Positions 1-8,672 of a stretch of 8,672 nucleotides of DNA are shown here, piece by piece. The position numbers and the translations under genes are program-made. This stretch comes from an uncultured virus (IMG/VR IMGVR_UViG_2593339138_000002) (lineage: Duplodnaviria > Heunggongvirae > Uroviricota > Caudoviricetes), in the IMG/VR virus record IMGVR_UViG_2593339138_000002; one strand, given 5' to 3'. Each line of letters opens with the position of its first letter. The first letter of the stretch is position 1. A model generated the notes under the pieces. The model saw nothing but the letters and a program-made list of their open reading frames with translations, had not been told where the DNA came from and did no database searches.

Positions 1-1818
1 GTATTGCCGGGGAACCATATCCCCAGATACGACCTTGTGGACAGCAGCGGAAATATACTCATAGAAGTAACTTGGGAGAACTTCTTCGAAAGCGAAAATC
101 AGCGGAGATGGACCCGAAAAGAGTCCGTATTCACCATAGCGGAGGAGACCAGTGTCGGCGTATTCTCCAAGATGTTCCAGTACGACAGCTCCTACGCTGT
201 TGATAATATCACGCCCTATCTTGTATTCCGCTACATGATAGTGCCTGTGGACACACCGACATCGCAGTTCAGCGTCACCCTGCCAATATCGGGCAGCCCC
301 GTTATCTCGGGCGAGAGCTGCTGGGAGCCGCACAAGGTAACGCTTGCGCTGACTATCAGCTCAGTGGGTGCAGGCGCAACAGATATCGAGATAGACATCG
401 GACAGAAGCTGACAGCAGGTCAGACGATATCCCTTGCAAGCACTGGCAGAAGTATACCCACTTACTACGGCCGCAATACCATCACCTGTGACAGCGAAGT
501 GCAGCCTACAGTATACATCAAGTACACCGAGCAGGAGCTTGTGCCGATGTGGGCTGAGGAACGCCCTGCGCAGGTGAGCATATATGACATACACGAACCG
601 CAGAGCGGCTTTGACCACAACGGCATTGCTATCCTTATGCCGTCGGAAGTGACGTCAGAAAAAGAGGATAAAGGGCGCTGGGATATCACTCTCACGCACC
701 CGATAGACCCATTCGGGAAATGGACATACATAGTAGGGCAGAACATCGTCAAGGTTAACAGTCAGCTTTTCCGCATAGATGAGACTGAGATAGTCGCAGA
801 GGCAGACTCAGAGTATATCACAGCCCATGCATGGCATATCACCTACGATATGAGCGACTACTGGATAGAGGAGGCACAATTCACAGCCGTCGGCGGCGAG
901 AACTACATCACGCAGCTGAACGCTCACCGCGTCAAGGACTTTCCAAATCAGCAGCACATGGTCGGAGAGTATACGTTTGATATCACATCCGACCTCGAGG
1001 GACAGATGGAATGCGCTATCACCGATCAGAGCATCATCGAGTCGATTTTCGGCGCCGATAACTCGCTCGTCACTCTCTACGGTGGCGAGGTATATCGAGA
1101 CAATTTTCACATGAGCGTCAATCAGACACTTGAGGGAGCACCTGAAGGCAATGCGTTTACCTTGAGGTACGGCACCGACCTTACGAAGATATCCTTCAAG
1201 ATAGATATGTCGGGCTGGGTCACGAACCTGATCGGCGTCGACAATTACGGTAACATGGTAGGCGTATGGTACGATACATCGGGCGACTGGATCGTACATC
1301 ATCATAAGACAAGGCGTATCCATTTTACTTACTCAGACGAGGCAGCCGATGGCATCGAGCGTCTGTGGAAATCTGTATGGCCGTACTGGGATAACATGAG
1401 CACGCCGACGGTCTCCATTGTTGTGGAGGTCGCCAACATCAAGGGCGACCCGAAGTACAAAGATTTCCTGAACTTGCAGAACTACGACGTAGGCTACAAG
1501 GGAACGATCTATGTCGAACATCTCGGCATAGATGTCGAGATGAAGATAGTCTCTATCCGCAGGAATGAGCTGACGGGCGAGGCGATACAGATCACCCTCG
1601 GCAATACCAGACGCTCGCTGATACGGCAGACAGTCATGTCGCAGACCATAGTGTCCCCGAATTCTGTGGAGGGCAAGAACGTAGCCGCCATGCAGTCGAT
1701 GCAGGCGGAGCTGTACAATACTCAGACTGCACTCATGAGTATGAGCATTGCGGGCATGGAAGCGTTCGACATAGCAGAACTTGAGCGCCGAACGATAAAC
1801 GAACTGGAGGGAAAATAA
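1..1818 (+). CDS. Phage tail protein (prophage tail endopeptidase/Tal-like tail-spike family), probably 5'-truncated by the window edge
   Basis: Frame is open from base 1. The C-terminal two-thirds carry motifs typical of siphovirus tail proteins (IYDIHEP..FDHNGIAIL, WDITLTHPID, QLFRI, YGGEVYRDNF, LRYGTDL, VGYKGTIYVEHLGIDVEMKIV..ITLGN). Lies upstream of the lysis genes. Confidence 0.8.
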   Translation, partial: VLPGNHIPRYDLVDSSGNILIEVTWENFFESENQRRWTRKESVFTIAEETSVGVFSKMFQYDSSYAVDNITPYLVFRYMIVPVDTPTSQFSVTLPISGSPVISGESCWEPHKVTLALTISSVGAGATDIEIDIGQKLTAGQTISLASTGRSIPTYYGRNTITCDSEVQPTVYIKYTEQELVPMWAEERPAQVSIYDIHEPQSGFDHNGIAILMPSEVTSEKEDKGRWDITLTHPIDPFGKWTYIVGQNIVKVNSQLFRIDETEIVAEADSEYITAHAWHITYDMSDYWIEEAQFTAVGGENYITQLNAHRVKDFPNQQHMVGEYTFDITSDLEGQMECAITDQSIIESIFGADNSLVTLYGGEVYRDNFHMSVNQTLEGAPEGNAFTLRYGTDLTKISFKIDMSGWVTNLIGVDNYGNMVGVWYDTSGDWIVHHHKTRRIHFTYSDEAADGIERLWKSVWPYWDNMSTPTVSIVVEVANIKGDPKYKDFLNLQNYDVGYKGTIYVEHLGIDVEMKIVSIRRNELTGEAIQITLGNTRRSLIRQTVMSQTIVSPNSVEGKNVAAMQSMQAELYNTQTALMSMSIAGMEAFDIAELERRTINELEGK

Positions 1819-2594
1819 TGAGTACTACATATACGTCGAACTATAACCTCGGCAAGCAGGAAGATCACGCCGACAAGTTCGACATGAGTGTGATCACCGA
1901 GAATATGGACAAGCTCGACACCGCACTGCATGAGCAGGCGGAGAATATCTCGGAAGTGCAGAACGCTCAGAGTGATCTCGATACCGCCGAAGCCGCTGAC
2001 CGTGCCGCACTTGCTGAGCTTATCGACGGCGGAGCGAAAAACCGCCTGCCGATAACATCTGTTGATAGTCTCAAGCAGTTGAATACCTATGGTACATGGG
2101 AGAACAATGTCTACACTCACTCAAGCGGAGTCGTATTCACAGTCAACGATGATATGTCAATCACAGCAAACGGCACAGCTTCGGGAGCAAATGCAGTTTT
2201 CATTCTTTCAATGCCGGGAGGCTTTTCGATTGAGGCAGGCAACTGGATCCTCTCGGGCTGCCCGTCAGGCGGCTCGGCAAGCACATACAACATCGCTATC
2301 GCGGGTACGACGTCCGACACAGGTACGACGGGAAGCTTTACCTCGTGTAGCAAGGTGCTCGTGAGGATCTACGTCATAAATGGCACAAGTATATCAAATG
2401 CGGTATTCCGTCCCATGGTCTGCTCGAAAGCAGCATGGGATATATCACAGGCTTATCAGCCATACCGTCCGAGCTATGCCGAGCTCTACGCGATGGTGCA
2501 GGCGCTTCAGGGCGGCGGCAACAGCCTCAGCTCTGTGCAGTCAACTGCACAGCTTACAAGTACAGATGCAGGTGATAACAATGCAGATAGTTAA
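1818..2594 (+). CDS. Phage tail fibre/baseplate (receptor-binding-like) protein
   Basis: RBS GGAGG at ~1806 and TAATG stop/start overlap with the upstream gene. The N-terminus TSNYNLGKQ..D.FD...NMDKLD resembles tail-fibre attachment segments. It is followed by a beta-rich GAKNRL..GVVFTVNDDMSITANGTA..YQPY domain of the kind seen in clostridial phage tail proteins. Confidence 0.65.
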   Translation: MSTTYTSNYNLGKQEDHADKFDMSVITENMDKLDTALHEQAENISEVQNAQSDLDTAEAADRAALAELIDGGAKNRLPITSVDSLKQLNTYGTWENNVYTHSSGVVFTVNDDMSITANGTASGANAVFILSMPGGFSIEAGNWILSGCPSGGSASTYNIAIAGTTSDTGTTGSFTSCSKVLVRIYVINGTSISNAVFRPMVCSKAAWDISQAYQPYRPSYAELYAMVQALQGGGNSLSSVQSTAQLTSTDAGDNNADS

Positions 2595-2607
2595 GGAGGG
2601 AAATGTA

Positions 2608-3009
2608 ATGCAGTATATAATCATGATAACAGTAGTACTCGGTCTCGCAATAGCGGACTTCATCACAGGTATAATCAAGGCATACATCACACGGAAGCTC
2701 AGCAGCAGCAAGATGCGGAAAGGAGGCTTGAACAAGATAGCTGAGATCATCATAATGACCGCCACCTGCTGGCTCGAGATAGGCATCAAGGCCCTCGGGC
2801 GATACTACGGGGATAAACCCGAGAAGCTGACGCAGATAGCCGGCACGATTGCGGCAATCGCGGTATTCGGGTATATAGCTCTCATGGAGATGCTCTCGAT
2901 GCTTGAGAACTACTGCGTGATAAACCCCAATGCACTATGGGCGAAGAAAATTGTAAAAAGGCTAAAAGTATTTGAAGACGAGGAGGAAAAAGATGAAAAA
3001 CGGAATTGA
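2608..3009 (+). CDS. Phage holin (Phage_holin_4/TcdE-like family), 133 aa
   Basis: RBS AAGGAGG at 2593-2599 favours ATG 2608 over the 2380 start in the ORF track. Has hydrophobic segments, the motifs DFITGIIKA..LSSSKMRKG..K and EMLSMLEN, and a charged C-terminus. Overlaps the endolysin start. Confidence 0.88.
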   Translation: MQYIIMITVVLGLAIADFITGIIKAYITRKLSSSKMRKGGLNKIAEIIIMTATCWLEIGIKALGRYYGDKPEKLTQIAGTIAAIAVFGYIALMEMLSMLENYCVINPNALWAKKIVKRLKVFEDEEEKDEKRN

Positions 3010-3733
3010 CGTCAGCAGACATCAGCTGACTATCGACTGGATCGCAGTCAAGAACAGCGGTATTGAGTTCGCGATTATCAAGGCAGGCGGCTCAGATGAT
3101 GGATTTTATGAAGATAGCACCTTCCAGCGGAACTATGCCGGCGCAAAGGGTGCCGGGCTCGCTGTCGGTGCATACTACATTGTCGGCAGCAAGTGCATAT
3201 CCCGCGAGGACGGTATCGCGGACGCGAAGCGCTTCCTGAGGATCATCGAGGGCAAGCAGTTCGAGTTCCCCGTGTACATCGATCTGGAAAAAACAGCTCC
3301 TGAGCATAAGACAGGCGCAACAGATGCTTGTATCGGCTTTTGTCAGACTATGGAGCAGGCAGGCTACTACTGCGGCATATATGCCTCTGATGTGTACGGC
3401 TTCGCGGAAAGACTCGACATCTCACGCTTGGCAGCATTTGACAAGTGGGTGGCAAGATACGGCAGCAAGCCGCAGTACGTCAAGACTTACGGCGTATGGC
3501 AAAAATCTGACGTGGGCAGAGTATCGGGTATCACCGAGAAAGTCGATCTTGACGAGTCGTACATGGACTACCCATCAATCATCAAGGGCAAGGGCCTCAA
3601 CGGCTTTTCCAAGCCCGAGCCTGTGCAGCAGTCCGAGCCTGTCAAGGCACACACCGTCCATCATCTCAAGGTGATCATCGACGGAGTGCCTATCATAGAC
3701 GATCACGAGTTCAGCGGTCTGCTGGGCGATTGA
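2993..3733 (+). CDS. Endolysin, glycoside hydrolase family 25 muramidase, 246 aa
   Basis: RBS AGGAGG at 2981-2986 before ATG 2993. GH25 motifs GIDVSRHQ, FAIIKAG, VGAYY, YIDLE (DxE), WVARY, WQ and VDLD are present. Directly follows the holin. Confidence 0.93.
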   Translation: MKNGIDVSRHQLTIDWIAVKNSGIEFAIIKAGGSDDGFYEDSTFQRNYAGAKGAGLAVGAYYIVGSKCISREDGIADAKRFLRIIEGKQFEFPVYIDLEKTAPEHKTGATDACIGFCQTMEQAGYYCGIYASDVYGFAERLDISRLAAFDKWVARYGSKPQYVKTYGVWQKSDVGRVSGITEKVDLDESYMDYPSIIKGKGLNGFSKPEPVQQSEPVKAHTVHHLKVIIDGVPIIDDHEFSGLLGD

Positions 3734-3734
3734 G

Positions 3735-3760
3735 AAAGAGCTCCCTTCGGGGAGCTCTTT
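3735..3760 (+). terminator. Rho-independent terminator ending the lysis operon
   Basis: Perfect stem AAAGAGCTCCC-TTCG-GGGAGCTCTTT with a cUUCGg loop, immediately after the endolysin stop. Confidence 0.9.
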
Positions 3761-3785
3761 AATTTTACACAAAACAAAGTTCAGT

Positions 3786-3823
3786 TATTTGTGCAAGTAT
3801 ACAAATATCACTCAATGAGTATT
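3786..3823 (+). repeat. 38-bp exact direct repeat, copy 1 (core of a ~115-bp duplicated promoter module, ~3768-3885)
   Basis: TATTTGTGCAAGTATACAAATATCACTCAATGAGTATT is identical to 5000-5037. Confidence 0.95.
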
Positions 3824-3840
3824 ATTATTTTAAAAACCTA

Positions 3841-3869
3841 TTGACATAGCACTCAATGAGTGCTATAAT
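3841..3869 (+). promoter_or_regulatory. Consensus sigma-A promoter with palindromic operator in the spacer (cassette 1)
   Basis: TTGACA (3841-3846), 17 nt, then TATAAT (3864-3869) with extended TG. Perfect inverted repeat ATAGCACTCA-A-TGAGTGCTAT at 3846-3866. Confidence 0.9.
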
Positions 3870-3930
3870 ATAATCGAGGAAAGGGGGATAGAACCCCGAA
3901 AGATGAACGCCGAAAGGCAAGGAGGGCACT

Positions 3931-4137
3931 ATGACTATTAAGGTAAATGGAATTGAAATCGGTACAATCACAACTAACCGCTCACTCACAATTGAAGAAG
4001 CAATGTACTCACTCGGATATGACATCAACGATCAGGACGATTGCAGAAAAGGCTACGAAAAAGAAGTTGAGGGCTTTTACCTCGACGATTGCGGAAACTA
4101 TTGCTTTGATTACGAAGCAGCAGAAATGGAGTATTAA
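3931..4137 (+). CDS. Small acidic hypothetical protein, 68 aa
   Basis: Strong RBS AAGGAGG at 3919-3925; first gene after the cassette 1 promoter. No family recognised. Confidence 0.75.
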   Translation: MTIKVNGIEIGTITTNRSLTIEEAMYSLGYDINDQDDCRKGYEKEVEGFYLDDCGNYCFDYEAAEMEY

Positions 4138-4139
4138 TC

Positions 4140-4499
4140 ATGAACTACGATTACTACAAAACGCTGATAGGCGAATACATCAACCTCGGGCGCTCGAAAG
4201 AGCGCCTGCTGGGCGAAATAGGATTTCCCGAGGAGCTGAAGCTTACAGTCGATGGGCTGACAAAAGCTGTAGACATAATAGCCGCAGCAGCCGAAAACAG
4301 TATGAAAGAACTCGTGGAACTCTCAGGTCTGAGTATGAGAGCCTTTGCGGGAAAGTACATGATCCCGTATAGGTCCATGCAGAACTGGTGTGCCGAAGGT
4401 AAAGAGGCTCGCACTCCTCCCGATTACCTTGCACTGCTTATCGGCTACGAGCTTATCACTGAGCTCAAGGTGGAGGGCTCAGACGATGTCGATATATGA
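4140..4499 (+). CDS. XRE/Cro-like helix-turn-helix protein, 119 aa
   Basis: C-terminal segment MKELVELSGLSMRAFAGKYMIPYRSMQNW...RTPPDYL matches the HTH_3-type pattern. GGAG lies upstream of the ATG. Confidence 0.8.
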   Translation: MNYDYYKTLIGEYINLGRSKERLLGEIGFPEELKLTVDGLTKAVDIIAAAAENSMKELVELSGLSMRAFAGKYMIPYRSMQNWCAEGKEARTPPDYLALLIGYELITELKVEGSDDVDI

Positions 4500-4944
4500 T
4501 AGGATATGCCGTACTTGTGGAGTGAGCTTTAAAGGCGGTCCTCGGGCATGGTATTGTCCCGACTGCCGCAAAGAGCGTCAGCGCGAACGATCTGCCAAGT
4601 ATCGCAAGAGCACTCCGAAAAGAAGCCTCGGAAGTAAAGACATCTGCCAGAACTGCGGCGAAGAGTACACTGTTGAGGGTGGATTGCAGAAATACTGTCC
4701 GAAATGTCAGGATATCATGCACAAAAAGCTTGACACTGAGCAATCCCTTGAATATTACCGCAAAAACAAAGAGATTATAAATCCTGCGCGTAATGCCAAA
4801 AGGCGAGTGCCAGACGCCCGCTGCGTTATATGCGGCAAAGATTTTAAACGCTCGGGCAGAGCTAAAGCCTGCCCCGAATGCCGCAAAGAATATAAAAACG
4901 GCAACTGGAGAAGCATATACGGAAAGAGGTATACAAAGAAATAA
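4486..4944 (+). CDS. Basic protein with three C4 zinc-ribbon repeats, 152 aa
   Basis: RBS GGAGG at 4472-4476 supports ATG 4486. Repeats are CRTC..CPDC, CQNC..CPKC and CVIC..CPEC, each followed by a K/R-containing stretch. Confidence 0.8.
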   Translation: MSIYDRICRTCGVSFKGGPRAWYCPDCRKERQRERSAKYRKSTPKRSLGSKDICQNCGEEYTVEGGLQKYCPKCQDIMHKKLDTEQSLEYYRKNKEIINPARNAKRRVPDARCVICGKDFKRSGRAKACPECRKEYKNGNWRSIYGKRYTKK

Positions 4945-4980
4945 TAAAAGGAGTTTCCCTTTGGAAGCTCCTTTTATTAT
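4941..4980. terminator. Probably bidirectional rho-independent terminator between cassettes 1 and 2
   Basis: ATAATAAAAGGAGTTTCC-CTTT-GGAAGCTCCTTTTATTAT forms an 18-bp stem with one G-U pair and has A and T tracts on either side. Confidence 0.88.
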
Positions 4981-4999
4981 GTACAAAACAGAGTACAAA

Positions 5000-5037
5000 T
5001 ATTTGTGCAAGTATACAAATATCACTCAATGAGTATT
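5000..5037 (+). repeat. 38-bp exact direct repeat, copy 2
   Basis: Identical to 3786-3823. The flanks (ACAAAACA upstream; TATTGACA..TATAATATAATC.AGGAAAGGG downstream) are also similar. Confidence 0.95.
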
Positions 5038-5053
5038 TTTTTCTTAAAAGTTA

Positions 5054-5082
5054 TTGACAAATCACGCAATGCGTGATATAAT
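5054..5082 (+). promoter_or_regulatory. Consensus sigma-A promoter with variant palindromic operator (cassette 2)
   Basis: TTGACA (5054-5059), 17 nt, then TATAAT (5077-5082) with extended TG. Inverted repeat ATCACGCA-A-TGCGTGAT at 5061-5077. Confidence 0.9.
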
Positions 5083-5144
5083 ATAATCAAGGAAAGGGAA
5101 ACAGCCTTCCTAATACGGTGGCAGATGCCAGAAAGGAGAAGAAA

Positions 5145-5270
5145 ATGAAAAAAATGACAAATGAACAGGCAAGAGAATTTAAAAGACTTGTCGAAGAAAA
5201 CATTAAACTAAAAATTAAAGTAAAGAAACTGAAAAAGAAATTAAAAAAGAAGTCCCAGCCAAAAGGCTGA
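5145..5270 (+). CDS. Small lysine-rich peptide, 41 aa (MKKMTNEQAREFKRLVEENIKLKIKVKKLKKKLKKKSQPKG), missing from the ORF track
   Basis: RBS AAAGGAG at 5132-5138, ATG at 5145, TGA at 5268-5270. First ORF after the cassette 2 promoter. Confidence 0.7.
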   Translation: MKKMTNEQAREFKRLVEENIKLKIKVKKLKKKLKKKSQPKG

Positions 5271-5275
5271 GACCT
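5243..5275 (-). terminator. Minus-strand intrinsic terminator
   Basis: On the minus strand it reads AGGTCTCAGCC-TTTT-GGCTGGGACTT-CTTTTTT. The 11-bp stem has two G-U pairs that would be A-C mismatches on the plus strand, and is followed by a U tract. Confidence 0.75.
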
Positions 5276-5328
5276 CAACTGAACAAAATCAAAGGTTGGG
5301 CGGTATCTGCCGCCGCCCTACCGATGAT
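5243..5328 (-). ncRNA. Predicted ~86-nt antisense small RNA with two hairpins
   Basis: Minus-strand promoter at 5335-5363, a 5' hairpin at 5288-5328, and a minus-strand-specific terminator at 5243-5275. Inferred from these signals only. Confidence 0.6.
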
Positions 5329-5334
5329 ATAATC

Positions 5335-5363
5335 ATATTAGCACAAAGGCAGAAAAAAGTCAA
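5335..5363 (-). promoter_or_regulatory. Antisense sigma-A-type promoter
   Basis: Minus strand TTGACT (5363-5358), 17 nt, then TAATAT (5340-5335) preceded by extended TG. Confidence 0.65.
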
Positions 5364-5401
5364 GTGGGTAATGCAGGTCGCCAGAAGGCAAGGAGGACTT
5401 T

Positions 5402-5680
5402 ATGAAAAAGGAAATAATGAACATCATCAAGAACGGAGGATGCTTCACAGTTAATGAAGCAATAAGCCTTGACAGAGAAGTCGGCGCAAGAATTGCGGGA
5501 GAAGAAGTCGATAAACTTACGGCAAGAATTAAGGTTGTCGGAATAAAAGGCTGGTATAACACCGAGATTATCTCAAGAGAGTATAACGGCATTATCGAAG
5601 AACTTAACGCAGCAATAGAGAAGGCATATGCTGAGGCAGCATCTAACCTCTGCAAGCAGATGAAAGCGGGGTACTGCTAA
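5402..5680 (+). CDS. Hypothetical protein, 92 aa
   Basis: RBS AAGGAGG at 5390-5396; TAATG coupling to the next gene. No family recognised. Confidence 0.75.
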   Translation: MKKEIMNIIKNGGCFTVNEAISLDREVGARIAGEEVDKLTARIKVVGIKGWYNTEIISREYNGIIEELNAAIEKAYAEAASNLCKQMKAGYC

Positions 5681-6153
5681 TGTTGATAGGGAGCAAAGGC
5701 TACCCGATAAGCTACGAGTGCTCAGAGCTTATCGAAGAGTTGAAAAAAGACATCAGAGAATGCGGCAAGGACAAGCTCCTTGCCGTATGGCTAAAGGAGT
5801 ACAAGGAGCACGGTATAGAATTTGCTGTCAACTACGACTTTGTAGTCGACGAAGCACCGATAGAGGCATCGGAGCTTGAAGCCGACGAAAGACTCGCAGT
5901 TATGACAGCGGAGAGCTTGCTGGACTTGCTTATAAAGCAGAACGACCCCGTACAAATATATGACCTGCATGAGCCCCACGTTCGGACGATCAAGGAACTC
6001 CGTACAGCTTGCGATATGACGCAGAAAGAGTTCTCGGAATACTTCGGCATTCCGAAACGCACCATTGAGGACTGGGAGGCGGGAAGAAGAAAGCCCTCTC
6101 AATGGGCTGTGGAATTGATCGAATACAAGCTCAAAAAAGAAGGCTTGATTTGA
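5680..6153 (+). CDS. Protein with C-terminal XRE/Cro-like HTH and an unknown acidic N-terminal domain, 157 aa
   Basis: C-terminus IKELRTACDMTQKEFSEYFGIPKRTIEDWEAGRRKPSQW is a typical HTH_3 pattern. Confidence 0.85.
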   Translation: MLIGSKGYPISYECSELIEELKKDIRECGKDKLLAVWLKEYKEHGIEFAVNYDFVVDEAPIEASELEADERLAVMTAESLLDLLIKQNDPVQIYDLHEPHVRTIKELRTACDMTQKEFSEYFGIPKRTIEDWEAGRRKPSQWAVELIEYKLKKEGLI

Positions 6154-6181
6154 AAATTCCGCACTTTTTGCACTTGACAAA

Positions 6182-6207
6182 AAAAGCCGCAGTTATATGC
6201 GGCTTTT
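6182..6207. terminator. Rho-independent terminator at the prophage end
   Basis: AAAAGCCGCA-GTTATA-TGCGGCTTTT. Confidence 0.8.
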
Positions 6208-6231
6208 CCTCGTGTATATCATTATTGTGCA

Positions 6232-6585
6232 GAGGAACTTGCCCACTTTGAAATGATATCGGCGATACTCTATCAGCTCACCAAGGACCTGTCCATGGAG
6301 GAGATAAAGGCAAGCGGCTTTGATACCTACTTTGTGGATCATACTACGGGCATTTACCCCGTAGCTGCCTCGGGAACGCCCTTTACAGCGGCTTATTTCC
6401 AGTCCAAGGGCGATATCCTTACGGATATTCAGGAGGACATGGCTGCGGAGCAGAAAGCCCGCACCACCTATGACAATATACTCAGACTTGCGGACGATCC
6501 CGATGTAAGGGACCCCATACGCTTTCTCCGTGAACGTGAGATAGTTCATTACCAGCGGTTCGGTGAACCGTTTCGGTCATGGTGA
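6232..6585 (+). pseudogene. cotJC: Internal fragment of spore coat protein CotJC (manganese catalase family)
   Basis: From 6232 the frame reads EELAHFEMISAILYQLT..YFVDHTTGIYPVAASGTPFTAAYFQSKGD..DIQEDMAAEQKARTTY..FLREREIVHYQRFGE, all CotJC-type motifs. Upstream the expected TDIGT is replaced by YHYCA, and there is no well-spaced RBS for ATG 6253. After RFGE the frame gives PFRSW-stop. Confidence 0.88.
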
Positions 6586-6662
6586 AGCACAGTAAGCGTA
6601 GAGCCGCCGCTCCCTGTTTTGCGGCAGCGCTTTTCTGCTGGGAAACTTTTATGCCGCTTATC

Positions 6663-6691
6663 TTGCCTTTTTGAAGCTTTTATGTTATAAT
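6663..6691 (+). promoter_or_regulatory. Sigma-A-type promoter
   Basis: TTGCCT, 17 nt, then TATAAT with extended TG, upstream of the ORF at 6728. Confidence 0.6.
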
Positions 6692-6727
6692 TTATAAAAC
6701 ACAGAGAAAAAGAGATGAGGAGAGAAA

Positions 6728-7093
6728 ATGGATAATTTCTATGAGAAAATGAACGAGGAGTGCGGTGTGAGACTGCCTTTTTCGGGTGAACAGGACTGGG
6801 AGTGGTGTGCAGGCGACCCCAAGCACACAGATGACTATATCGCTTTCTACAACAGGCATTCCGAGGATATGGACATCTGGCAGAAATACCTTGCTGTGAA
6901 CCTTATCGTGCAGGGGATAGAAGACCTGCTGGAGCAGGACGGGGAGCAGGCTGCGGCGGACAGGCTGTGGGCTGACACGAAGGAGATACTTCTCCGCGAT
7001 AATCACAGGCATACCATTTTTTCGTGGTCATGTGTGGACGAGGAGCCCGAGGACTGCTGGAATATCACTCCGCGAATGAGGGAGCTGCTGTGA
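6728..7093 (+). CDS. Acidic, Trp-rich hypothetical protein, 121 aa
   Basis: RBS GAGGAG at 6717-6722 and its own predicted promoter. No family recognised. Confidence 0.75.
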   Translation: MDNFYEKMNEECGVRLPFSGEQDWEWCAGDPKHTDDYIAFYNRHSEDMDIWQKYLAVNLIVQGIEDLLEQDGEQAAADRLWADTKEILLRDNHRHTIFSWSCVDEEPEDCWNITPRMRELL

Positions 7094-7160
7094 GATCAGC
7101 TGATGAACTATAGATCATAACTGAACAAGAACTAAAAAACGCAGGAATTTGAGGAATAAT

Positions 7161-8009
7161 ATGAAGTATAATTTTAGGACAGATTTGAAATATGTTGATA
7201 TAAACGGTCATAAGCTGCACATATTCAGGGCAGGAGATGGGAGAAAGCCAAAGCTTGTGTTCATGTCAGGCTCGGGGACCGCAGCACCCATGTATGTTTT
7301 TAAGATACTGTATGAGAAGCTGATCGGAGATTTCAGGATCATAGTTATAGAAAAATTCGGTTACGGTTACTCTGACTTGTATGAAGGTTCATGTAAAATA
7401 GACGATGTTATAGCTTATCAGAGAAAGGCGCTGGAGTCCGCAGGTGAAAAGCCGCCTTATGTTCTTCTGCCGCACTCTATGAGCGGTCTGGAGGCTATCA
7501 GGTGGAAACAGCTGTATCCCGAAGATGTAGCGGCGATCATCGGACTTGATATGGCAACGCCAATAACCTACATGGAGTGGAGTGACAGTGAGATAAAAAA
7601 GCGAATAGGTCTTATGAAGAAATTTCAGAAGCTCAACAGACTGGGGTTGCTTTTCTGGTATCCATTGAGCAGGCGCGGACTTGATAAAAATGAATGCAGG
7701 GAGCTTAAGCTGCTCAAAAAGAGAAATCTGATGAACGACTGTTATATAAATGAAGCGAGAGCGGTGCAGGCTAATGCTAAGGTCACCGCATCATCGGAAA
7801 TGCCACGCTGTCCTATGCTGATGTTCGTGTCAGACGGTAAACAGGTATCGGCTAATTGGCGTGAGAACGAGCGCAAGTACGCTGCCGGTGTTGGCGCCGA
7901 AACGGTTTTCCTTGACTGCGGTCACTATATCCACTATTTTGAGAGTGAGCGTATCAGCACAAAGATAAGAGAGTTTATATCCAAAAAGGAACTCTTTAAA
8001 GATACATAA
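7161..8009 (+). CDS. Alpha/beta-fold hydrolase, 282 aa
   Basis: RBS GAGGA at 7151-7155 before ATG 7161. Motifs LVFMSGSG, EKFGYGYSD, nucleophile elbow PHSMSG, AIIGLD and catalytic His in CGHYIH. Confidence 0.9.
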   Translation: MKYNFRTDLKYVDINGHKLHIFRAGDGRKPKLVFMSGSGTAAPMYVFKILYEKLIGDFRIIVIEKFGYGYSDLYEGSCKIDDVIAYQRKALESAGEKPPYVLLPHSMSGLEAIRWKQLYPEDVAAIIGLDMATPITYMEWSDSEIKKRIGLMKKFQKLNRLGLLFWYPLSRRGLDKNECRELKLLKKRNLMNDCYINEARAVQANAKVTASSEMPRCPMLMFVSDGKQVSANWRENERKYAAGVGAETVFLDCGHYIHYFESERISTKIREFISKKELFKDT

Positions 8010-8026
8010 GCACCAACGTATAATAA

Positions 8027-8060
8027 AACAAAAACGGGCAGCCTGCAAGTCTTGCCCGTC
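8027..8060 (-). terminator. Minus-strand terminator candidate
   Basis: ACGGGCA..TGCCCGT stem (8034-8059) followed by a T-rich tract on the minus strand. Confidence 0.55.
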
Positions 8061-8094
8061 AGAGTAAACACACCGAACCAAACCAAATAGTAAC

Positions 8095-8121
8095 AGAGCC
8101 GATACGTTATGTATCGGCTTT
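8095..8121. terminator. Hairpin/terminator between convergent genes
   Basis: AGCCGATAC-GTTAT-GTATCGGCT followed by TT and AT-rich sequence. Confidence 0.6.
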
Positions 8122-8195
8122 AATTATAATGTTATTGTCAGGTTTTGATACCGGCATCCTGTCGAAATGATGATCACAATGTTGTTTAATGATGA

Positions 8196-8672
8196 TCAAT
8201 CCTCAAACATTTCATCATAGATATCTCCCCAATCTTCGCCAATGAATTCTTCTGCCATCGACTCGATGTAGAGGGACTTTATTGTCAAGAAATCGTCGAA
8301 ATCGTTGTATTCCTTGGTCTCGCCTTCAAATATTGACATTATTTTTCCGTCAGAACGTGAGATAAAGACTGTTTCTCCGTCGCCGATCACGGAAGCGATG
8401 ATAATTATATCGTTTTCTTCTTTAAGAGTTCCGATTTCGGGCCATGAAAAATCAATAAATTGATCTAAAATAGAAGATTCTGCCGTTAACATGAGCCAGC
8501 TCTTATACTGATGAGGTAAAACTGTATCGTTTTCTTCTTCCCATTCATTGATCTTTTCGAGTGCAGCCGGGGGAGCAAATGTTGAATCTTTGAATTCTGC
8601 CAGAAGTGAACACATATTCTGATAGTATTTGAACTGTTCACTTATTATGGGGTCAATAACAAATTTTTCCAT
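8196..8672 (-). CDS. SMI1/KNR4 (SUKH superfamily) protein, putative toxin-immunity protein; true start may lie outside the window
   Basis: FAPPAALEKINEWEEENDTVLPHQYKSWL..IIIASVIGDGETVFI..FDDFL matches the SMI1/KNR4 pattern; acidic composition. Confidence 0.82.
   Translation of the reverse strand: MEKFVIDPIISEQFKYYQNMCSLLAEFKDSTFAPPAALEKINEWEEENDTVLPHQYKSWLMLTAESSILDQFIDFSWPEIGTLKEENDIIIIASVIGDGETVFISRSDGKIMSIFEGETKEYNDFDDFLTIKSLYIESMAEEFIGEDWGDIYDEMFED

Follow-up and report, generated by a model that had tools for sequence, protein, structure and literature searches.

Only a few cases are known of elements that interrupt a sporulation gene and excise from it in the mother cell, each with a single element. 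The skin element splits sigK, a mother-cell sporulation gene, in Bacillus subtilis (recombinase SpoIVCA) and in C. difficile (skinCd; CD1231 with a recombination directionality factor). Skin is prophage-derived, carries a gene for a large serine recombinase (LSR) at its edge and, upon precise excision, restores the open reading frame (ORF; PMC5595907, PMC4191935, PMC5025042). SPbeta is an active temperate phage inserted in the spore-envelope gene spsM; it has its LSR gene (integrase SprA, with SprB as directionality factor) at one end, and its excision serves the phage cycle as well as reconstituting the gene (PMC4191935, PMC5499854). A third element, gin, splits the small sporulation gene gerE in Bacillus cereus ATCC 10987 (GirC and GirX); it is a non-phage island that carries cargo genes and encodes a serine recombinase, and its excision needs a small accessory protein encoded within the element (PMC5595907). 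The spore-coat gene cotJC was named as an interruption target by Abe et al. 2013 (as cited in bioRxiv 10.1101/2021.11.22.469490), a skin-like element has been reported in cotJC of Laceyella sacchari (bioRxiv 10.1101/2022.02.25.481979), and phi027 of C. difficile adjoins a cotJC-like gene (PMC11222575, PMC12122855). Here we describe a cotJC gene split by three elements in a rumen-type Ruminococcus. Part of it lies in an 8,672-nucleotide stretch of DNA recorded as an uncultured virus (IMG/VR IMGVR_UViG_2593339138_000002), the whole of which is called the window below.

The window corresponds to C7:116066-124737, plus strand, in a genome of 3.83 Mb (28 contigs, 99.7% complete; C7 is one of the contigs). 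Among named records, the nearest are genomes of Ruminococcus sp. and R. flavefaciens that come from ruminant and other guts; the strain itself appears to be a cultured isolate. A frame of 112 codons (window 6232-6567) runs without interruption from EELAH to QRFGE. Its translation (window 6229-6585) matches Pfam family PF05067, Mn_catalase, at positions 64-189 of the 284-position profile (E = 1.7e-27; 96.6 bits, cut-off 27), and tblastn aligns the segment with residues 64-175 of intact CotJC orthologues from the same genus (about 204 amino acids) at 87-92% identity (E about 1e-63 to 1e-65). The match is far beyond chance. This segment, P3, spans residues 64-175 only and thus lacks the first 63 and the last 28 residues of the protein; beyond QRFGE the frame continues through five foreign codons (PFRSW) to a stop at window 6583-6585. 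P3 is flanked on the left by phage tail, holin, GH25 lysin, zinc-ribbon and HTH genes and on the right by an unknown ORF, an alpha/beta hydrolase gene and a SUKH-family gene. An earlier note, drawn up from the letters of the window, had placed a CotJC segment at 6220-6600, which both Pfam and the orthologue alignment bear out, and had proposed a gene in at least three pieces needing two excisions. The split structure holds; the number was too low, cotJC being present as four collinear pieces whose reassembly would take three excisions. The four pieces follow one another in order on the same strand of C7, spread over 88 kb:

C7:53353-53446, plus strand: P1, codons 1-31 (Pfam 27.9 bits, profile positions 1-31, matched at C7:53353-53445).
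C7:86756-86863, plus strand: P2, codons 30-65 (Pfam 41.9 bits, profile positions 29-71, matched at C7:86753-86878).
C7:122297-122632 (window 6232-6567), plus strand: P3, codons 64-175 (Pfam, profile positions 61-189 in the genome search).
C7:141293-141382, plus strand: P4, codons 174-203 and stop (tblastn with intact orthologues, E = 3e-13, match at C7:141272-141379).

Intact cotJA (PF11007, 7.3e-20) and cotJB (PF12652, 5.5e-31) stand directly upstream of P1. The earlier note had expected these two genes beside a piece ending near TDIG(T). That piece was found (P2, ending in ...TDIGTEE), and cotJA and cotJB are indeed upstream, adjoining the further piece P1 behind a second prophage that the note had not foreseen. 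The short 3' piece predicted to begin near (GE)xL is P4, which starts with GEAL... directly beside a recombinase gene. Of the situations that the note had set against its own proposal, none was encountered. The pieces are collinear on C7. No second copy of cotJC or of a manganese catalase gene was detected in the 99.7%-complete genome with the Pfam profile, tblastn or a CotJC profile, the last of which returned four matches only. A naturally short C-terminus was rejected: the two relatives whose genes end in RFGEP..., G010 and G011, are interrupted at this point and have separate 3' pieces, that of G011 lying 15.9 kb downstream on the same contig.

None of the four pieces contains a stop, a frameshift or a deletion. 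Joined in silico by their coordinates, they encode a protein of 203 amino acids, free of stops and 91.6% identical to an intact 204-residue orthologue. Of the 87 columns invariant across 12 intact orthologues, this virtual protein keeps 86, the sole change being L129I; P3 alone keeps 49 of 50. Judging from the sequence, precise recombination between the left and right attachment sites (attL and attR) at the three sites would restore an uninterrupted 203-codon cotJC behind cotJA and cotJB. The intervening DNA and the recombinase genes that it carries are as follows:

C7:53447-86755: E1, 33,309 bp, a complete-looking prophage seated after codon 31.
C7:86864-122296: E2, 35,433 bp, a second prophage, seated after codon 65; window 1-6231 is its right end.
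C7:122633-141292: E3, 18,660 bp, a non-phage island seated after codon 175; window 6568-8672 is its left end.
C7:53469-54935, minus strand: LSR1, 488 amino acids, in E1, abutting P1.
C7:86901-88508, minus strand: LSR2, 535 amino acids, in E2, abutting P2.
C7:139781-141271, plus strand: LSR3, 496 amino acids, in E3, abutting P4.

E1 encodes RecT, SSB, a replication O-like protein, HNH, large terminase, portal, prohead protease, capsid, tape measure and tail proteins and an M23 peptidase. Outside the window, E2 carries genes for an S24/HTH repressor, PcfJ, terminase (TerL), portal, ClpP, capsid and tape measure; the tape-measure gene contains a run of 1,184 N (C7:114882-116065), immediately left of the window and away from the cotJC pieces. 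Pfam identified no phage or conjugation genes in E3, the cargo of which comprises two two-component systems, two ABC-transporter sets (one with an FtsX-type permease), TetR, aldo/keto reductases and flavodoxins. The three recombinases each contain the Resolvase and Recombinase Pfam domains, with Zn_ribbon_recom in addition in LSR3, and match the integrase family PHROG 95 (1e-93 to 1e-110). In large serine recombinases the catalytic serine is contained in an N-terminal Y-x-R-x-S motif; the translations read YIRVS in LSR1, YLRKS in LSR2 and YARQS in LSR3. Pairwise identity among the three is 21-24%, and their genes begin or end within about 20-40 bases of P1, P2 and P4. We regard the four-piece structure, and its origin by LSR-mediated insertion, as practically certain.

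Directly upstream of LSR3 lies a conserved 56-amino-acid ORF (motif ENLxP...LYDVFxKY) at C7:139562-139729 (L029:17562-17729). It matched no Pfam or PHROG family; small ORFs of the same type also precede 16 of 29 LSR3-like genes, including some away from cotJC. This ORF is a candidate for the directionality factor of E3 excision. LSR1 is the apparent last gene of a minus-strand operon, behind genes for an 85-amino-acid zinc-ribbon protein and a DUF2085 membrane protein (C7:55323-55679, 54952-55323); the true start of the zinc-ribbon protein is probably MNCPKCG..., preceded by a good ribosome-binding site. Over 2,557 bases, the tail genes at the right end of E2 (window 1-2557) share 96.4% identity with the tail region of E1 at C7:83042-85574. 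The two copies form direct repeats about 33 kb apart with P2 between them, and homologous recombination between them would fuse both prophages and permanently delete P2.

Alignment of attL and attR of each element with the uninterrupted cotJC of five relatives defined the crossover regions. Site 1 has a 7-base core, GGCGGTC, in codons 30-32. The 6-base core of site 2, GAGGAA (window 6232-6237), is repeated at C7:86858-86863, the end of P2, and encodes E64-E65; intact orthologues read GA(A/G)GA(A/G) here. At site 3 the core region is CGGTGAA in window 6561-6567 and CGGCGAA in its partner at C7:141289-141295, encoding G174-E175. Identity at this site amounts to a 3-base core, GAA (six of seven bases across CGG(T/C)GAA), and the sequences suggest that the crossover probably falls within GAA. 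All three cores lie in protein columns that are invariant among the 12 intact orthologues (G30-G31-P32, E64-E65-L66 and F173-G174-E175). Each of the six element ends shows the core together with imperfect inverted-repeat arms, as expected of the attP sites of serine integrases. In the element-side arms, exactly complementary bases number 14 for E1 and 12 for E3; for E2 about 15 of 19 were counted by eye, with a 2-base offset. Within the window, the arm of attR2 (6212-6231) consists of the last 20 bases of E2 and is an inverted repeat of the first bases of this element (from C7:86864). The arm of attL3 (6568-6585; the first 17 bases of E3), read as PFRSW plus stop, is an inverted repeat (12 bases exact) of the last bases of E3 before P4. 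Relative L109 has this 17-base arm after cotJC codon 175 as well, and arms related to it are present in G010 and G011. Because the site pairs are unlike and the recombinases so divergent, the three reactions should be independent and could proceed in any order.

The excised form of E1 is represented among viral contigs. Two IMG/VR records, L203 (35.2 kb; LSR1 100% identical at the amino acid level) and L204 (99%), carry attP of E1: the left end of the element, to C7:53440, is followed by the core and then by the right end from C7:86762-86766, at 96-98.5% nucleotide identity. With the genomic sites, these contigs document attB, attP, attL and attR of E1 in natural sequence, and at least E1 is very probably competent for excision. 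In a third viral contig, L193 (LSR2 97% identical), the left end of E2 leads to the core and then, read by eye, to an attR2-like arm; the remainder of the right end of L193 differs from E2. Inspection by eye of free phage PQ006094, the integrase of which is 54% identical to LSR1, gave no recognisable attP.

Two complete-looking phages, one with a free attP form, and three cores in invariant protein columns are also what one would find if cotJC were simply a safe harbour for lysogeny. The elements would then occupy conserved and widespread landing sites in a gene dispensable for growth and excise for their own transfer only (upon SOS induction; never in the case of E3), with cotJC off in this strain and spores, if made, devoid of CotJC. 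We consider this explanation doubtful on grounds that emerge from the survey of relatives and from the state of the gene, described below.

The locus was also examined in assembled contigs of sequencing runs (Logan). Three ruminant-gut metagenome runs, each from a different study, have contigs that span the whole of E3 and bridge the P3/E3 and LSR3/P4 junctions, mostly at 90-99% likeness, indicating that the arrangement is real and present outside the sequenced strain. In the probable source run, P3-E3-P4 is covered at an even depth of 186-188. It is scarcely credible, then, that the four-piece gene is an artefact of repeats or several strains having been mis-joined. The 2.56 kb shared by E1 and E2 at 96.4% could mislead an assembler; against this, cores and arms match at all six junctions, and relative G262, three of whose four pieces share a contig, has the same three sites occupied, as G131 probably does. 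One joint in run X2 (479->19332, 90% likeness) lies away from the cores and probably stems from another organism's intact cotJC.

Two surveys were made of related genomes. In 200 genomes of the family, loci with related LSR genes were checked for a cotJC piece within 1.5 kb:

LSR1-like: 15 of 17 loci abut a cotJC piece, with the break at residues 25-35.
LSR2-like: 13 of 29 loci abut a cotJC piece, 10 with the break at residues 62-68 and 3 at residues 3-7.
LSR3-like: 14 of 29 loci abut a cotJC piece, with the break at about residue 175.

In the second survey, 150 genomes of the genus were searched with a profile of 12 intact CotJC proteins, and 125 gave a match. Classes were tallied by hand from the largest listed piece of each genome, 92 short matches not being listed, and contig ends of fragmented assemblies may inflate or hide some of the breaks:

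Collinear from residue 1 to at least 200: 29 genomes.
Only the first 2-3 residues missing: 11 genomes.
Break at site 3 only: 18 genomes.
Break at site 1 only: 11 genomes.
Sites 1 and 3 broken: 2 genomes.
Site 2 broken, site 3 empty: 30 genomes.
Sites 2 and 3 broken: 7 genomes.
Break near residue 135: 4 genomes.
Small pieces only: 12 genomes.
A longer paralogue only: 1 genome.

cotJC is therefore interrupted in at least 72 of the 125 genomes with a match, and interruption is the rule rather than the exception in the genus. All three sites are occupied in G262: one contig carries pieces covering residues 6-34, 29-73 and 61-178, at spacings of 3.4 and 1.5 kb, and a separate contig carries a fourth (residues 167-202). 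The same probably holds for G131, a member of another genus, in which pieces 1-32, 62-190 and 170-200 were found and the 32-62 piece was not. Two sites are occupied in G014, G207, G261, G263 and G086. In addition to the three sites, two further break points were observed in relatives (G267, G354, G311 and G013; loci L094, L101 and L102). One is near residue 133-137, in four genus genomes. The other, at residues 3-7, is seen in the three LSR2-like loci mentioned above, alongside the 11 genus genomes in which nothing but the first 2-3 residues is missing. In total, cotJC may thus have five insertion sites.

The frequency of breaks confined to site 3 raises the question of whether the gene merely tolerates truncation there, the catalytic manganese-catalase parts being kept and the last 28 residues swapped; excision of E3-type elements would then be unneeded, and E1 and E2 alone would interrupt the gene. 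The 18 genomes of this class (12 with frames from residue 1, 6 from residue 3-6) have frames of 177-213 amino acids, G011 and G010 run into short foreign tails, and the Pfam Mn_catalase match of intact orthologues stops near residue 197-198. We nevertheless find this explanation unlikely, as the last 28 residues hold six invariant columns, all of them retained in P4, and P4 is open and conserved beside LSR3 here, in 13 of 29 LSR3-like loci and in G010, G011 and G014. For the present genome the question is moot, E1 and E2 still splitting cotJC.

Some interruptions are due to mini-elements of 1.5-3.1 kb that contain little beyond an open recombinase gene. In all four examined (L068, L039, L050 and L115), the cotJC flanks join in frame without stops; extras are a lysin remnant in L068 and, in L039, a PilZ gene and the small ORF found upstream of LSR3-like genes. 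Persistence of an open recombinase gene and in-frame flanks in otherwise decayed elements is expected if excision matters to the host, and tells against insertion for the elements' benefit alone. The 1.5-kb element of L115 (site 2; L115:1728-2984) consists of a single LSR2-like gene, the product of which matches LSR2 at 62% identity along residues 36-388 but is missing the C-terminal part expected to hold the coiled coil. Loss of the coiled coil can allow serine integrases to excise without a directionality factor.

Selection on the pieces was assessed from the ratio of nonsynonymous to synonymous substitution rates (dN/dS). Against the three closest relatives, taken from a name search, P3 (protein 96-98% identical) gave dN/dS values of 0.005, 0.005 and 0.012 with dS at 1.5-2.3; synonymous sites are saturated against the genus orthologues, so that these three relatives alone gave usable ratios. 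Against the genus orthologues, dN ranges from 0.048 to 0.138, within the range found among intact orthologues (0.043-0.136). These values show that cotJC matters in this group. The three closest relatives have broken cotJC genes themselves, L109 at site 3 only, L110 at site 1 only and L111 at sites 2 and 3. This differing occupancy points to fast turnover and fits simple lysogeny. Much less expected under that explanation is the combination of interruption in more than half of the matched genus genomes with very strong purifying selection (dN/dS 0.005-0.03) and with a gene that shows no decay and keeps 86 of 87 invariant columns. An ancestral insertion shared with the close relatives was also considered and rejected: L109 carries another element behind the same 17-base arm, and in L111 the arm itself differs.

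Core sporulation genes are present and open in the genome (Spo0A_C, SpoIVA, SpoVAC/EB and two sigE/sigK-like sigma factors). Four matches to the Spo0A C-terminal domain (contigs C15, C18 and C6), two of them at full strength with E about 1e-43, suggest duplicated spo0A-like regulators. CotJC is expressed in the mother cell in B. subtilis, and promoters of mother-cell sigma factors follow the consensus AC-N16-18-CATAnnnTA. Upstream of cotJA (C7:52767-52860), a motif of this type, AC-N17-CATAATATAA, occurs in all 12 loci compared, from this genome and 11 relatives. In the same 12 genomes the motif is followed by a conserved GC-rich hairpin of the GTGCGGAG...CTCCGCAC type, which may serve the cotJ operon as a leader structure or attenuator. 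A scan of C7:52-142.5 kb yielded the cotJA promoter and one more site, AC-N18-CATATTATA at C7:55646-55674, about 70 bases upstream of the zinc-ribbon/DUF2085/LSR1 operon. The open sporulation genes and intact cotJA and cotJB make it very unlikely that sporulation or CotJC has been lost in the lineage, the pieces being a pseudogene yet to decay. A gene in four pieces and the classical description of rumen Ruminococcus as non-sporing would suit a dead gene; retention of the invariant residues, absence of stops, frameshifts and deletions, and dN values typical of intact orthologues would not.

Taken together, the data show cotJC to have been the attB landing site of three different site-specific elements, each inserted by its own LSR, which recognises a different short core within an invariant protein stretch. 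We propose that the excisions occur in the terminally differentiating mother cell, as do those of skin (sigK), SPbeta (spsM) and gin (gerE), and that each would be driven by the recombinase of the element and a directionality factor. CotJC would then be made only after all three events, a three-input AND, with the elements kept in the forespore chromosome; upon induction, E1 and E2 would in addition leave as ordinary phages do. This reading leans on the precedent that every tested element of the same architecture in a sporulation gene excises during sporulation (PMC5595907, PMC4191935), a precedent that also speaks against excision for transfer alone. Support comes from the nature of the target, a cotJ gene behind a conserved mother-cell-type motif in a genome with core sporulation genes, and from frequent interruption combined with strong purifying selection and surviving recombinase-only remnants. 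We give the explanation as a whole, three LSR insertions with mother-cell reassembly, a probability of roughly 0.55. By analogy with the tested systems, the odds that all three elements excise in the mother cell appear about even. More tentatively, and with the balance tilting against it, cotJC might be a co-evolved landing pad in which at least three (possibly five) orthogonal LSR lineages of this family of gut Clostridia each have a site of their own. It would operate in this strain as the three-input AND, and the mini-elements of relatives would be domesticated developmental switches rather than dying parasites.

Several observations weigh against developmental excision. The strong purifying selection is not assignable to the time spent interrupted. 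Close relatives carry different elements at shared sites, so that a long residence of the elements in this lineage does not follow. E1 and E2 look complete and recently active, and the intactness of the pieces could reflect mere recent insertion. A clean P3-P4 excision joint was not found in the contigs of the three metagenome runs, and those of the probable source run represent the integrated form only. Upstream of related recombinase genes the mother-cell motif occurs at about background frequency (1/17, 3/30 and 1/29 loci), as it would if the elements were ordinary lysogens, and nothing is conserved upstream of the pair formed by LSR3 and its small ORF. To our knowledge, rumen Ruminococcus of this type has not been observed to form spores and is classically described as non-sporing. 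Sporulation has been shown for R. bromii only (PMC5814915). Finally, cotJ mutants of B. subtilis have no apparent defect (PMC12122855), so that cells may tolerate being without CotJC; in both B. subtilis and C. difficile, coat proteins of the CotJC family appear to be either dispensable or redundant (PMC12122855, PMC11222575), as would suit a safe harbour.

Compared with the systems described at the outset, the cotJC elements share with skin an LSR gene at the edge, a sporulation gene, probably a mother-cell one, as target and, in silico, an ORF restored by precise excision; E1 and E2 are also of prophage nature, and the mini-elements of the relatives resemble skin remnants. Skin differs in that it targets a sigma factor, is a single, defective element and has been shown to excise in development, whereas cotJC is a coat gene with three elements, E1 and E2 complete-looking, for which developmental excision is predicted. 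E1 resembles SPbeta in being a temperate phage in a spore-envelope gene with an end-located LSR and an attP seen free. Unlike SPbeta, E1 and E2 yielded no SprB-like factor or sporulation promoter, LSR1 and LSR2 are known to be related to SprA at the family level only, and two phages stand in tandem with a third element. E3 recalls gin, a non-phage island with cargo, and its 56-amino-acid candidate factor can be likened to the accessory protein of gin; gin has three recombinase genes against one in E3 by Pfam, and the small ORF of E3 is without family. The published cotJC interruptions concern the same target; they are single, mostly in Bacilli and mentioned in passing. Here, three elements with three recombinase lineages occupy one 612-bp gene, and interruption spans most sampled species of a gut genus. 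A literature search, mostly without subscription journals and supplements, returned no case of cotJC or another sporulation gene split by three elements and none from Ruminococcus.

The nearest analogue of a multi-step reassembly is the nif cluster of Calothrix sp. NIES-4101, where nifBHDK lies in 13 parts and is restored by seven excisions and two inversions (PMC11249958; see also PMC4874684). As in cotJC, several elements are involved, each with its own recombinase near a repeat; all must recombine in a terminally differentiated cell, as is proposed for cotJC. The heterocyst system differs in phylum, cell type and recombinases, and its restoration has been shown by resequencing and PCR; the cotJC pieces are collinear and need no inversion. 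If the cotJC excisions are developmental, they would be the first case of an endospore former reassembling a gene in several steps, in parallel with heterocyst nif, and phages and islands would be woven into the spore-coat formation of gut anaerobes. Where single elements were known so far, one small gene here holds three, and in this major rumen and gut genus, usually regarded as non-sporing, most of the species sampled have the same sites occupied. Either way, the locus provides three naturally orthogonal sets of recombinase and attachment sites useful for genome engineering, attP of E2 having been read by eye only.

The remaining features of the window belong to the right end of E2 and the left end of E3:

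Window 1-1818: E2, tail protein (Pfam Prophage_tail, 4.4e-12).
Window 1818-2594: E2, 258-amino-acid tail-fibre-like ORF.
Window 2605-3009: E2, holin (Phage_holin_4_1, 5.8e-13).
Window 2972-3733: E2, GH25 endolysin (Glyco_hydro_25, 1.1e-27); small ORFs are also present in this right end.
Window 4480-4944: E2, 154-amino-acid protein with several double zinc-ribbon motifs (DZR, 3.3e-7), between the lysis genes and the HTH gene.
Window 5680-6153: E2, HTH_3 protein (HTH_3, 1.7e-9).
Window 6663-6691: E3, sigma-70-like promoter.
Window 6728-7093: E3, 121-amino-acid unknown ORF.
Window 7149-8009: E3, alpha/beta hydrolase.
Window 8196-8672, minus strand: E3, SUKH/SMI1-KNR4 gene, continuing past the end of the window.

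A hairpin at window 6186-6207 had been read as a terminator; this reading was dropped, as the terminator scan did not call it. Within the first 100 bases of E3, window 6593-6690 is matched at 75-82% by three other places in the genome, a tandem pair at C12:290878-291068 and a single copy at C19:171055-171159, and thus represents a short dispersed repeat.

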